Shown: positions 26,078 through 29,702, counted from the stretch's first letter. The stretch is 64,000 nucleotides of DNA from Polyangia bacterium (GCA_046351595.1 JAXLYE010000002.1:1496022-1560021); one strand, 5' to 3'. Notes: a model not told the origin generated them from the sequence alone. Numbers and translations: made by a program.

Positions 26078-26644
26078 ATGAGCACCGCGACCGACAGCAT
26101 CAGCGGCAACCTCGCCGACAACATCCGCCAGCTGCGCGAGGCGCGCGGCCTGACGCAGCAGCAGATGGCCAAGATCTCGGGGCTGCCGCGCCCGACCTGG
26201 AGCAACTTGGAGTCCGGCGCCGCCAACCCGACGATCGGCGTGCTCGTCAAGGTCGCGACCGCGCTGCAGGTCTCGGTCGAGGAGCTCTTGTCGCCGCCGC
26301 GCGCCTCGGCGCGCTTCTTTGCCGCCGACAGCCTGCCGGTGCGGCAGCGCGGCCTGGTGCAGGTGCGCAAGCTCCTGCCCGAGCCGGTCGCCGGCATGGA
26401 GCTCGATCGCCTCGAGCTGCCCGTCGGCGGCCACATGGCCGGCATCCCGCACACGCCCGGCACGCGCGAGTACCTGACGTGCGAGACCGGCGCGATCGAG
26501 CTCACCGAGTCCGGCCAGACGTGGCTCTTGAACCCGGGCGACGTCGTCGTCTTCCGCGGCGATCAGAAGCACGGCTACCGGAACCCCGGCCGCGTCCGCG
26601 CCATCGCCTACAGCGTCGTGGTGCTGAAGCCGGCGGGCACCTGA
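26078..26644 (+). CDS. XRE-family HTH transcriptional regulator with C-terminal cupin domain
   Basis: N-terminal IRQLREARGLTQQQMAKISGLPRPTWSNLESGAANPTIGVLVKVATAL is an HTH_3 domain. The C-terminal beta-barrel has GDVVVFRGDQKHGYRN. Confidence 0.8.
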   Translation: MSTATDSISGNLADNIRQLREARGLTQQQMAKISGLPRPTWSNLESGAANPTIGVLVKVATALQVSVEELLSPPRASARFFAADSLPVRQRGLVQVRKLLPEPVAGMELDRLELPVGGHMAGIPHTPGTREYLTCETGAIELTESGQTWLLNPGDVVVFRGDQKHGYRNPGRVRAIAYSVVVLKPAGT

Positions 26645-26721
26645 CGGGCCGCTCGATTTGTGGGGAGGGAGGCGTCGACCGGCCGGCGCCGTGACGCCCG
26701 CGGCGGGTTTCCTGCGTCGGC

Positions 26722-27960
26722 CTACGCGCCCGACGTGCGCGGTCCGATGTAGCGCGAGTCCGGGCGGATCAGGCGGCCGGTGCGCCGCTGCTCCGCGACG
26801 TGCGCGCACCAGCCGGCGATGCGGCCGACCGCGAACGTCGGCGTGAACAGCGCTCGATCGAGCCCCGCCGCATCGAGCAGCACCGCGGTGTAGAACTCGA
26901 CGTTGGCGCGCAGCGGGCGGTCCGGGTAGCGGCGGCCCAGCACGTCCTCGGCGGCGCGCTCGACGGCCCGCGCCAGCGCCAGGCGCGGCGTGCGCACGCC
27001 AGCGGCCTCCAGGCGCTCGATGGCCCGCTCGAGCACCGCGGCGCGCGGATCGCGCACGCGGTAGACGCGGTGGCCCATGCCCATCACCCGCCGCCCGGCG
27101 ACGAGCTCAGCCTCCAGCCAGGCCACCGCCTGCGGCGGCTCGGCGATCGCGTCCAGCATGTCGAGCACCGGGCCGGGCGCGCCGCCGTGCAGCGGCCCCT
27201 TGAGCGCGCCGAGCGCCGCCACCACCGCCGACACCGTGTCCGAGCCGGTCGAGGCGACCACGCGCGCCGTGAACGTCGAGGCGTTCATCCCGTGCTCGAG
27301 CACCGTCACCAGGTAGGCATCGAGCGCCGCGGCCCGCGCCGGATCGTCGCCGCCGCCGAGCAGCCGCAGGTAGTCCGCGGCGTGATCGCGCGCCGGATCC
27401 GGCTGCAGCTCGTGCGCCGCGTGCACCGCGTGCGTCGCGTGCGTCGCGTGCCCTGGGGCCTGCCCCGCCTTGCCGTGCGCGCGCGCCCAGGCCGCGACGT
27501 ACACCGGCGCCGCCCCGAGCAGCGCGATCGCCTCGTCACGCAGCGCCGCAGAGCGGGCGGGCTCACCGGCGGGCGGCAGGGGCGCGGTGTGCCCCGCGAG
27601 CAGCGCGCGCAGGGCGTCCATGGGATCCGCGAGCTGCAGCGCCGGCCCGCACACGCCGAGCCGCGCCGCCGCCGCCTGCCGCGCCGCGCCCAGCCGCCGG
27701 CTCATCGCCGCGGTCGCCGCCGCATCCGGCAGCGCGCCGTCGAGCAGCAGGCAGCAGGCGGCCGCGAACGGCACGTGCCCGGCCAGCGCCTCGATGCTGT
27801 GCCCGGCGACCACGAGCTGCCCGCGCTCGCCGTCGACCTCGCTGATCGCGGTGTCCGCAACGACCAGGCCGTCCAGGCCCGAGCCCGGTGCCGGCTTGTC
27901 GGCGCGGCGGCTCGGGGCGCTGGGGGGGGCGGCAGAAGTGGGGATGGTCGACGTCGACAT
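26722..27960 (-). CDS. Citrate synthase family protein
   Basis: Start MSTSTIPTS with GAGGAGG RBS. GMGHRVYRVRDPRA is the citrate-synthase signature. LEHGMNASTFTARVVAST. Confidence 0.8.
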   Translation of the reverse strand: MSTSTIPTSAAPPSAPSRRADKPAPGSGLDGLVVADTAISEVDGERGQLVVAGHSIEALAGHVPFAAACCLLLDGALPDAAATAAMSRRLGAARQAAAARLGVCGPALQLADPMDALRALLAGHTAPLPPAGEPARSAALRDEAIALLGAAPVYVAAWARAHGKAGQAPGHATHATHAVHAAHELQPDPARDHAADYLRLLGGGDDPARAAALDAYLVTVLEHGMNASTFTARVVASTGSDTVSAVVAALGALKGPLHGGAPGPVLDMLDAIAEPPQAVAWLEAELVAGRRVMGMGHRVYRVRDPRAAVLERAIERLEAAGVRTPRLALARAVERAAEDVLGRRYPDRPLRANVEFYTAVLLDAAGLDRALFTPTFAVGRIAGWCAHVAEQRRTGRLIRPDSRYIGPRTSGA

Positions 27961-28094
27961 GGGCTCCTCCTCTACAAGGAACGGGGGGCGACCGGCGCTC
28001 TGGGCCGCATCGTGCGCGCCCGGCCCGGTGGCAGCGACGGGCACGCTCGCTCGCGGCCCTCGCTCTGCAGTAGAGGTTGGCGCTTGCCGATTGC

Positions 28095-28205
28095 TTGATC
28101 AATGTTGATTCGAACATCAACGTAGTTGATTCAAACATCAACATACTTGATTCAAGAATCAACATACTTGATTGATCCATCAACATAGTTGATGTGGTAA
28201 TCAAC
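28095..28205. promoter_or_regulatory. AT-rich array of 5 (+1 half) TTGAT-N6-ATCAAC palindromes at exact 21-bp spacing (putative operator array) between divergent citrate-synthase-like genes
   Basis: Sites at 28105, 28126, 28147, 28168 and 28189: TTGATTCGAACATCAAC / TTGATTCAAACATCAAC / TTGATTCAAGAATCAAC / TTGATTGATCCATCAAC / TTGATGTGGTAATCAAC, separated by 4-bp spacers gtag/atac/atac/atag. An upstream half-site is TTGATcaatg. Confidence 0.6.
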
Positions 28206-28310
28206 CTCGCAGAGAAGCCTCCCCGATCGCAGCGCCCGATCGGCAGCACGCGACGCGGCGGTCGCCGCCCGTGCGCCGCCGCCCACGACCCCACCTACGA
28301 CGGAGCATCC

Positions 28311-29702
28311 ATGAGCCAGAGCCGGAGGACGCCCCCACCGCAGCGAAGCACCCACGGCCCCGAGGCCAGCGCTCGCAGCACCCGCAGCCAGCCGGACGGT
28401 CCGGATCGTCCAGATCGGCCGGGCGCGCCCGCCGACGCGGTCGAGCTGCTGTCGGTGCGCGAGGCCGCGGCGCTGCTCGGGGTCAAGCCGCAGACGCTGT
28501 ACGCCTACACCAGCCGCGGCCTGCTGCGCAGCGTGCCGTCGGTGGTCGGGCGCAGCCGCCGCTACGCGCGCGACGAGCTGCTGCGGCTGTCGCGGCGGGC
28601 CGCGGCGCGCGCCGGGCACACCGCGGTCGCGGCCGCGGCGCTCGACTGGGGCGAGCCGGTGCTCGACTCGGCGCTCACGAAGATCAGCAGCGAGGGGCCG
28701 CGCTACCGCGGGCTGTCGGCTCTGGAGCTGGCCGCGGCGCAGGTGCCGTTCGAGGCGGTCGCCGAGCTGCTGTGGGGCAGCGCGCCCACGGGCTCCGTCA
28801 CGGCGCTGCGCGAGCTCGCGATCGACTGGCCGCAGCCGCCGCTCGGCCTGCCGCTGGTGGCGCTGCGCGGCCTCTTGCCCGCGGAGGTGCCGCGGCTGCA
28901 GCTGCTCCTGTGCGCGGTGCCGCTGTGGGCGCAGCGCGATCCCGGCCGCTTCCTCGGCGCCGGCCGCGGCGAGGAGGCCGAGCGGGCGCGGGCGCGGGCG
29001 CTGCTGCGGCGCCTGGCGCTGGTGCTGGTGCTGGCGCGGCCGCAGAAGGATCCCGAGCGCCTGCAGAAGGCCGCGGGCCACGAGCGCATCGCCCTCATCC
29101 TGGCCGCGGCGCTCGGCTCGGGCAGCCGCGAGCAGGCGTCGGCGATCGAGCACGCGCTCATCCTCATGGCCGACCACGAGCTCAACGCCTCGACGTTTGC
29201 GGCGCGCATCGCGGCCTCGGTCGGCACCGATCTGTACGGGTGCGTGACGGCGGCGCTGGCAGTGCTGACCGGCCCGGCGCACGGCGGCGCCTGCGACGGC
29301 GTCGAGGCGCTGCTCAGCGAGATCGGCACGCCCGCGCGCGCCGCGGCGACGCTGCACGAGCGCGCGCGCCGCGGCGAGCGCCAGCTCGGCTTCTCGCACC
29401 CGCTGTACCCGGCCGGTGACCCGCGCAGCCGGCCGCTGCTCGAGCTGGCCTACGCGATCGGCGGGCAGAAGCCGCGCGTGCGCACCCTGCGCGCGCTGGT
29501 GCAGGCGCTGAGCGCGGACGGGCTGCCGCTGCCCGCGGTCGACTTCGGCCTGGTCGCCATCGCCGAGGCGCTGGGCCTGCTGCCCGGCTCGGCCAGCGCG
29601 CTGTTCGCGGTCGGCCGCGCCGCCGGCTGGATCGCGCACGTCTTCGAGCAGCGTATTGGTGGGGTCATGCTGCGCCCGCGCGCAAGATACATCGGGCCCT
29701 AA
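28311..29702 (+). CDS. Fusion protein: N-terminal disordered region + HTH_17 (MerR/excisionase-type) DNA-binding domain + citrate-synthase-like domain
   Basis: Start MSQSRRTPP after GGAG. LLSVREAAALLGVKPQTLYAYTSRGLLRSV..RRYARDELLRL is the HTH_17 domain. Citrate-synthase-like motifs: MADHELNASTFAARIAASVGTD, GFSHPLYPAGDPR, and C-terminal RPRARYIGP. Confidence 0.7.
   Translation: MSQSRRTPPPQRSTHGPEASARSTRSQPDGPDRPDRPGAPADAVELLSVREAAALLGVKPQTLYAYTSRGLLRSVPSVVGRSRRYARDELLRLSRRAAARAGHTAVAAAALDWGEPVLDSALTKISSEGPRYRGLSALELAAAQVPFEAVAELLWGSAPTGSVTALRELAIDWPQPPLGLPLVALRGLLPAEVPRLQLLLCAVPLWAQRDPGRFLGAGRGEEAERARARALLRRLALVLVLARPQKDPERLQKAAGHERIALILAAALGSGSREQASAIEHALILMADHELNASTFAARIAASVGTDLYGCVTAALAVLTGPAHGGACDGVEALLSEIGTPARAAATLHERARRGERQLGFSHPLYPAGDPRSRPLLELAYAIGGQKPRVRTLRALVQALSADGLPLPAVDFGLVAIAEALGLLPGSASALFAVGRAAGWIAHVFEQRIGGVMLRPRARYIGP

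Follow-up and report, generated by a model that had tools for sequence, protein, structure and literature searches.

A MerR-type helix-turn-helix joined to a citrate synthase fold: a putative autoregulator with a conserved candidate operator in Myxococcota

What is the role of a protein in which a DNA-binding domain and a complete citrate synthase fold share one polypeptide? Such a protein is encoded on the 64,000-nt stretch of DNA analysed here (the window), which comes from a Polyangia bacterium (GCA_046351595.1 JAXLYE010000002.1:1496022-1560021) and has a GC content of ~72%. Its gene joins a helix-turn-helix (HTH) domain to a citrate synthase domain and is divergent from a gene for a second, CitA-like citrate synthase. 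We infer that the fusion protein is a sequence-specific autoregulator, dimeric and of the one-component kind, that also controls the paralogous synthase gene and is possibly a trigger enzyme, and we give the whole chain of this argument a probability of about 0.6. The parts of the gene are listed below with their amino acid (aa) ranges; model confidence is given as the predicted local distance difference test (pLDDT).

28311..29702 (+): HTH-citrate synthase fusion gene, 463 aa plus stop; a single open reading frame with HTH_17 and Citrate_synt domains (Pfam)
28311..28445 (+): disordered Pro/Arg/Ser-rich head, aa 1-45; pLDDT <50 for aa 1-42
28446..28586 (+): winged HTH of the MerR/BldC/Xis type, aa 46-92; from HTH_17, MerR_1 and the fold model
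28569..28649 (+): long connecting helix, aa 87-113; a helix in both AlphaFold2 models
28647..29681 (+): complete citrate synthase fold, aa 113-457; PF00285, E 1.3e-56, with intact catalytic and oxaloacetate-binding residues

Do the two domains belong to one gene? An uninterrupted frame spans 28194..29702 (+), and its probable start is the ATG at 28311, which is preceded by a GGAG ribosome-binding site; both are kept in L081 (93% protein identity) and L082 (75%), the two closest relatives that could be retrieved for comparison at this locus. A Pfam search recovered HTH_17 (E 2.9e-10) joined to a full citrate synthase domain, in agreement with the initial annotation, and both domains are joined in one protein in almost every one of the top 120 homologues. 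Because the frame is continuous and the same two-domain protein recurs in homologues, we excluded a frameshift or two-frame artefact, and the 5' part of the gene is not the separate small reading frame that had been raised as a caveat. The architecture is not rare either: among clusters at 50% identity, 150 or more have a representative that carries it; the family is large and mostly from Myxococcota. Its members are named in databases 'citrate synthase (family protein)' or 'helix-turn-helix domain-containing protein'.

In the AlphaFold2 model of the whole protein (31 homologues, mean pLDDT 82), aa 1-42 are a disordered head, aa 46-86 form a winged HTH and aa 87-113 a long helix, which is followed by the citrate synthase fold; aa 40-125 were also modelled alone. 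Predicted disorder covers ~45 aa, shorter than the ~60 aa first proposed for the head. This segment (aa 1-45) is unconserved in most homologues, whose alignments begin at about aa 35-47, and the GC content at its third codon positions (GC3) is 0.82, compared with 0.97-1.0 from the HTH onward. With its weak GC3, the stretch at 28311..28445 resembles the non-coding DNA upstream, yet its ATG and ribosome-binding site are kept in the relatives.

What could the HTH recognise? The divergent intergenic region is 347 bp long; its GC content falls to 36% over a 126-bp island, compared with 75% on either side. The repeats of the island are as follows.

28095..28209 (no strand): predicted operator array; a head, TTGATCAATG, then five GTTGAT-N6-ATCAAC palindromes at 21-bp spacing
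28105-28120, 28126-28141, 28147-28162, 28168-28183 and 28189-28204: the palindrome cores

A repeat array at about 28095..28205 had been reported in the initial annotation, and it is real: five perfect TTGAT-N6-ATCAA sites are spaced at 21 bp. The window has six copies of the motif, whereas 0.15 would be expected, and five of them make up the array. L081 has the same head and five units, and L082 has four units. When the window is compared with these two relatives, no half-site differs, and the variation is confined to the N6 cores, the 3-4-nt spacers between units, the flanks and the copy number; invariant half-sites with variable spacers would be the pattern expected of protein contact sites. 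A metagenome scan for a two-unit array pattern returned just two unrelated matches, in low-GC coding repeats.

The sixth TTGAT-N6-ATCAA in the window (41732..41747) lies inside the ExbD/TolR coding region (41317..41796, -). We considered this site as a further operator and set it aside as a probable chance occurrence within coding sequence.

Is the site particular to this lineage? We compared 80 genome loci encoding the HTH-citrate synthase fusion (~13 kb each, ~1 Mb together), which came from Myxococcus, Corallococcus, Pyxidicoccus, Archangium, Sorangium, Byssovorax, Minicystis, Nannocystis, many Myxococcota metagenome-assembled genomes (MAGs) and one Binatota MAG. A ~27-nt element, TTGATCAA-N2-TKGAT-N6-ATCAAC, lies directly upstream of the fusion gene, and 42 of the 51 copies of the word TTGATCAA in these loci are <500 nt upstream of the HTH-coding region. 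A weight matrix for the element was trained on only 12 class A loci (see below), and both strands of the 68 held-out loci were scanned with it. In 60 of these 68 the best site of the whole locus was just upstream of the HTH, on the strand of the gene. The offset of the element from the HTH-coding region is often fixed, at -36 to -39 nt. The head of the array in the window, TTGATCAATGTTGATTCGAACATCAAC, is a good copy of the family-wide element, which suggests that an ancestral operator had its palindromic part multiplied in the window lineage. This conserved palindromic element travelling with the fusion is the strongest new support for the protein being a regulator.

The loci fall into three classes by their divergent neighbour, each with its own form of the element.

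Class A: divergent neighbour a CitA-like citrate synthase; ~40 of the 80 loci, plus the window; co-directional upstream in L052 and L079; element form TTGATCAAC-G-TKGATTCGACAATCAAC
Class B: divergent neighbour a generic class I S-adenosylmethionine (SAM) methyltransferase; Myxococcaceae; element form CTCAATCTCGATTCGACCATCGAC
Class C: divergent neighbour a TauE/SafE-family permease; a clade of MAGs; element form TTGATCAAGTTGAY-N6-AATCAAT

The element accompanies the fusion whether the divergent neighbour is the CitA-like synthase, the SAM methyltransferase or the TauE-family permease. Neither of the latter two neighbours gave a metabolic clue: the class B methyltransferase matched a trans-aconitate methyltransferase model with just 31.5 bits against a cutoff of 320, and the class C permease has no clear link.

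Several Myxococcaceae loci (L004, L005, L016, L018, L020, L026 and others) have a variant, CTCAATCTCGATTCGACCATC, 36-63 nt upstream of the HTH codons. There the variant falls inside the open reading frame upstream of the HTH and encodes a conserved peptide, SQSRFD; a second related copy, TCGAGTCGAGTCGACAAT, is found ~60 nt further upstream. Either the start codons of these genes have been called too far upstream or the DNA may serve both uses.

Does the same operator reach the neighbouring synthase gene? In class A, the candidate target is the following gene of the window.

26722..27960 (-): CitA-like citrate synthase, probable co-regulated target; PF00285, E 4.4e-99

The product of this gene scores above the NF009005/PRK12350 cutoff (352.5 bits against 332), so that the earlier description of it as a canonical-type citrate synthase holds, and its best matches in the PDB are citrate synthase I of B. 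subtilis (2c6x) and CitA of M. tuberculosis (6wgy/8gmf). The element lies between the fusion gene and the divergent CitA-like gene in ~40 loci, where the operator is 50-120 nt from the conserved N-terminal region of the CitA-like gene (67-70 nt in Sorangium). Where the two genes are separated (L075) or in operon order (L052), the element remains upstream of citA.

In L075, the operator (about 5032..5060) is 62 nt from citA, and the fusion gene (at 6001) is ~945 nt away, which suggests an insertion between the two genes. The CitA-like protein of the window has a His/Ala/Thr-rich insert, GHATHATHAVHAAHE, at about aa 165-185 that splits its alignment to solved citrate synthases; this insert could be a metal-binding or low-complexity loop.

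The array might be the operator of some other regulator, either of the CRP/FNR type or the XRE-cupin protein encoded nearby, with the HTH of the fusion binding elsewhere. The nearby gene is:

26054..26644 (+): regulator with an XRE HTH plus a cupin domain (Pfam HTH_3 plus Cupin_2)

FNR/FixK boxes have the half-sites TTGAT and ATCAA with N4 spacing, and the half-sites of the array equal theirs. However, the spacing is N6 in all five units of the window and in the family-wide element. The XRE-cupin gene is 1.4 kb from the array and convergent with citA, but it is present in none of the 80 loci and is absent from L082, all of which retain the element or the array; it is present only in L081, the relative whose fusion protein is 93% identical. 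The element also sits at a fixed offset from the fusion gene in very different neighbourhoods, and hardly any copies occur elsewhere in the ~1 Mb of loci or in the 64-kb window (in the window one site, that in ExbD). Another protein as the binder is therefore quite improbable, and the fusion protein itself is the binder that we infer for the predicted operator. The initial annotation had pointed to the XRE-cupin neighbour; the gene is genuine, with both of its domains recovered, but it stands outside the conserved module. We rejected it as a module part or array binder, since the element or array persists without it, and it is probably not part of the system.

The tandem, AT-rich 21-bp repeats resemble iterons, and HTH_17 is an excisionase-type domain (the excisionase-type model TIGR01764 matched with E 2e-5 and 24.9 bits, under its cutoff); a tyrosine integrase gene lies 3.2 kb downstream. 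These observations would fit an excisionase of a mobile element, or repeats that serve as iterons or a partition site. However, many Myxococcota have the gene and its element in the chromosome, in conserved synteny, no integrase cluster recurs near the fusion in the 80 loci, and most loci have a single composite site, not an array. The HTH is moreover fused to a 350-aa enzyme fold. Chromosomal synteny and the lack of a recurring integrase cluster led us to reject the mobile-element reading, and this whole explanation is extremely improbable.

To which family does the DNA-binding domain belong? HTH_17 (PF12728) covers aa 46-92 with 40.7 bits (cutoff 27), and MerR_1 also passes its Pfam cutoff (26.2 bits against 21.6). 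Two further models fell under their cutoffs, namely PF00376 (24.8 bits, cutoff 28.2) and NF033787, the BldC model (18.3 bits). The predicted topology is strand-helix-helix-strand-strand, with pLDDT ~90. In a Foldseek search with the model of aa 40-125, the top match was BldC (6ama/6amk; root-mean-square deviation (rmsd) 1.7 Å, 33-35% identity), with further matches to SoxR, NmlR, MtaN and BmrR (rmsd 1.3-2.2 Å) and to the architectural or excisionase proteins RacA, Xis and RdfS.

The HTH is followed by one of the most conserved parts of the protein, a near-invariant motif (ARAGH-x-AVAA-x-AL-x-WGEPV) that joins it to the enzyme fold. Within the helix R96, A107, A110 and L111 are invariant, and G114, E115, P116 and V117 (28650..28661) are invariant directly after it. 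The degree of this conservation suggests that the segment is a functional connector and not a passive tether.

Members of the MerR family form dimers through an antiparallel coiled-coil helix, and their palindromic operators lie in promoters with a 19-20-bp spacer between the -35 and -10 boxes. The fusion protein resembles MerR regulators (MerR, SoxR, CueR, BmrR, MtaN) in its N-terminal winged HTH, its long helix and a C-terminal module in the position of the effector domain; this order is the family layout (PMC5859096). The DNA sites are likewise palindromic, with half-site centres ~11 bp apart. Unlike these regulators, the fusion has as its C-terminal module a complete, 350-aa citrate synthase fold with an intact active site in place of a small effector pocket. 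This fold would probably provide the dimer interface, and the site in the window is multiplied fivefold.

BldC of Streptomyces is a stand-alone protein of 68 residues without dimerisation or effector domains that oligomerises head-to-tail on direct repeats (PMC5859096). Together with Xis-type proteins, it is the best structural match of the HTH, and the predicted target in the window, like those of BldC and lambda Xis, consists of closely spaced repeats that vary in number among relatives (PMC5859096). However, the fusion protein has 463 aa and a large dimeric enzyme fold, and its repeats are mainly inverted; the fold match notwithstanding, it belongs with neither BldC nor the Xis-type proteins.

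Is the citrate synthase domain intact? PF00285 matched with 192.6 bits (cutoff 27) over profile positions 3-357 of 357. The best Foldseek matches were PrpC structures (6s6f, 3o8j, 3hwk) and small citrate synthases, with template modelling (TM) scores of ~0.8 on the target, and sequence alignments to the PDB were to 1iom and 3hwk. A fold search with the whole model returned citrate and methylcitrate synthases only, and no solved structure among the matches carries an HTH. Residues of the pig enzyme, in its standard active-site numbering, were mapped through an alignment to solved citrate and methylcitrate synthases, and their conservation was counted in 120 homologues (the top 120 database matches).

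Pig H238: window H289 (29175), kept in 120 of 120
Pig N242: window N292, kept in 119 of 120
Pig H274: window H324 (29280), kept in 120 of 120
Pig H320: window H363 (29397), kept in 120 of 120
Pig R329: window R372, kept in 120 of 120
Pig D375: window D411 (29541), Asp in 108 and Glu in 12 of 120
Pig F397: window F432, kept in 120 of 120
Pig R401: window R436, kept in 120 of 120
Pig R421 (active site of the partner subunit): window R455, kept in 120 of 120

The Glu variant of the catalytic base is also present in the CitA-like enzyme of the window. The initial annotation had described the signatures of this domain as degenerate, which the census contradicts: catalytic and oxaloacetate-ligand residues are kept in 119-120 of 120 members. 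Given this intact catalytic set, we rejected a degenerate pseudo-enzyme, and, because the active-site residues are intact across the family, the domain could still be an enzyme. One signature differs, GHRVYK being GHPLYP in the family, with Pro at the +4 position after the second catalytic His in 114 of the 120; the CitA-like enzyme of the window has Arg at that position. All NCBIfam models at the enzyme level scored under their cutoffs, the best being TIGR01800, the model for 2-methylcitrate synthase/citrate synthase II (168.4 bits against 421.3).

The protein could thus be primarily an isozyme of citrate or 2-methylcitrate synthase, in which the HTH is a DNA tether or acts in simple autoregulation and the fold senses no ligand. 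Retention of the full catalytic set in 120 of 120 homologues would fit this, as would the best structural and sequence matches, which are active PrpC and small citrate synthases, and the best NCBIfam match, TIGR01800. However, the domain scores far under every NCBIfam enzyme cutoff (168 against 421), and Pro replaces the basic +4 residue family-wide. The conserved linker and the fixed position of the operator favour functional coupling of the two domains, and tethering alone leaves unexplained why a sequence-specific operator is common to the fusion and a paralogous synthase gene. We regard the isozyme explanation as unlikely, although it deserves serious consideration.

How might such a protein act as an autoregulator? 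The invariance of the arginine that acts in trans (R455) implies that the canonical citrate synthase dimer is retained; the citrate synthase domains would then dimerise as in all citrate synthases, with this arginine donated across subunits. A dimer would offer two HTHs to the palindrome TTGAT-N6-ATCAA. By binding the element in its own promoter or 5' region, the protein would regulate its own gene, and in the window lineage and about half of the family, where the element is common to the divergent CitA-like gene, it would regulate that gene as well. In the window, the five palindromes are two helical turns apart and could seat several dimers on one face of the DNA, with cooperative binding.

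The proposed mechanism also gives the enzyme fold a sensory part. The open-to-closed domain movement of the citrate synthase fold is well known, and because of this movement and the intact oxaloacetate/citrate pocket, control of DNA binding by a metabolite is plausible. Occupancy of the pocket by oxaloacetate or citrate, possibly together with an acyl-coenzyme A (acyl-CoA), would drive the domain movement, and the conserved linker would relay it to the HTHs and so change DNA binding. In a more specific form of this account, the citrate synthase fold would be an allosteric, possibly catalytic switch, in which oxaloacetate and/or acyl-CoA closes the two domains of the enzyme and so repositions the two HTHs; several dimers on the five palindromes would form a cooperative nucleoprotein complex that sets the expression of the second synthase. 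We put this switch forward tentatively, as a possibility with rather less than an even chance. The initial annotation had offered either a DNA-tethered enzyme or a transcription factor that uses a citrate synthase fold as a sensor. The architecture and the conserved operator uphold a regulator built on this fold and the 'degenerate' enzyme falls away; either role of the fold, sensor or enzyme, would fit.

Dimerisation also allows a different kind of control, in which the fusion protein forms heterodimers with the CitA-like paralogue. Heterodimers with one HTH could not hold the palindromes, and the transcription of the enzyme would thereby respond to its abundance or state. Dimerisation is obligate in citrate synthases, whose active sites are shared between subunits; both proteins have the trans-acting arginine, and the genes are adjacent with a common operator in ~40 loci. 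However, the paralogues are just ~35-42% identical, and many lineages have the fusion without an adjacent CitA-like gene. Such titration is improbable as the sole explanation; feedback through heterodimers is a possibility that could be added to the allosteric switch.

Several points weigh against the fusion protein as a metabolite-responsive autoregulator, beside the likeness of the half-sites to FNR/FixK boxes. The coupling between the domains was not captured by the model, in which pLDDT is <50 for aa 103-116. A scan of the intergenic region for promoters and terminators found none, and no sigma-70-type promoter was recognised there. In some Myxococcaceae loci, the variant element has a low matrix score of 2-13 bits. 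The GHPLYP change may have altered CoA binding, as the basic residue at +4 (R324 in the pig enzyme) is a ligand of a CoA phosphate. Finally, the recognition helix and wing of the HTH appear to covary with the operator: HTHs with 'LYTYV' and GTKENRY pair with the operator form ...CAATCTCGATTCGAC... / CAATCTCGAT, and those with 'LYAY[ATV]' and GRxRRY pair with the form TTGATCAAC-GTKGATTCG. In L003 and L043 the citrate synthase domain is roughly equidistant from both HTH groups. This covariation is suggestive but largely confounded with phylogeny, and we dropped it as an independent test.

Are there known systems of this kind? The trigger enzyme concept is reportedly that of Commichau and Stuelke. 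At the level of sequence, the fusion protein is like the trigger enzymes PutA, BirA and NadR in having a DNA-binding domain and a seemingly intact catalytic domain in one chain, and, as with trigger enzymes, the predicted operator is placed both at the gene for the protein and at another gene in the pathway, here that of a citrate synthase paralogue. It differs from these three proteins in its enzyme fold (citrate synthase) and in its type of HTH.

In B. subtilis, the LysR-type regulator CitR is encoded divergently from citA, and in the present locus, too, the gene for a minor citrate synthase is paired with a divergent gene whose product would be its dedicated regulator. TnrA and GlnR have a MerR-like winged HTH whose binding to DNA is governed by glutamine synthetase (PMC5859096); there a separate enzyme binds the C-terminal tail of the regulator, whereas here the enzyme fold is covalently fused. 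Geobacter HgtR is a regulator of citrate synthase (PMC2817479), and CitA of Caulobacter has a role in the cell cycle that is independent of catalysis (PMC7083601), a precedent for regulation by a citrate synthase. Neither CitR nor HgtR contains a citrate synthase fold, and the Caulobacter CitA is without a DNA-binding domain.

Full-text literature searches returned no description of an HTH-citrate synthase fusion, and the earlier remark that no characterised regulator of this architecture was known agrees with the searchable literature. To our knowledge, regulators with direct sensing of oxaloacetate, acetyl-CoA or citrate are few, and none uses a citrate synthase fold. The family is widespread and uncharacterised, and we view its members as probable one-component regulators or trigger enzymes in which the enzyme-derived module is new. 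It comprises no fewer than 150 clusters (50% identity), with members in Myxococcus, Sorangium, Corallococcus, Archangium, Nannocystis and relatives. If this view is correct, the proteins would represent a new class of transcription factors, or trigger enzymes, of enzymatic origin, and the control of a second, CitA-type citrate synthase would be accounted for in many myxobacteria. The proteins would also constitute a compact metabolite-responsive switch with a defined operator, usable as a biosensor. Should the allosteric switch exist, an enzyme fold hitherto unknown in this function would wire entry into the tricarboxylic acid (TCA) cycle directly to transcription. The annotation of proteins now named simply 'citrate synthase' is corrected, and the system is immediately testable, as a predicted operator, target genes and candidate ligands have been named.

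The surroundings of the fusion gene gave some further observations. Convergent with it, and syntenic in L081 and L082, is a gene at 29743..31209 (-) for a protein resembling those with a von Willebrand factor A (VWA) domain, with N-terminal KPAAKK repeats like those of histone H1/HC2; both Pfam matches were below cutoff. A gene at 23107..23721 (-) encodes a 204-aa protein with a C-terminal match to a bacterial microcompartment (BMC) shell domain, also below cutoff (E 8.9e-5, 22.8 bits against 24.5). The gene at 31322..32935 (-) encodes major-vault-protein domains (MVP_shoulder, E 2.2e-18; Vault_3, E 9.5e-8; a weak Vault_4) and a long coiled-coil-like tail. Its start is overlapped, on the opposite strand, by the 5' end of a tyrosine recombinase gene at 32895..34064 (+) (Phage_integrase, E 1.1e-25), which may mark the edge of an integrated element.

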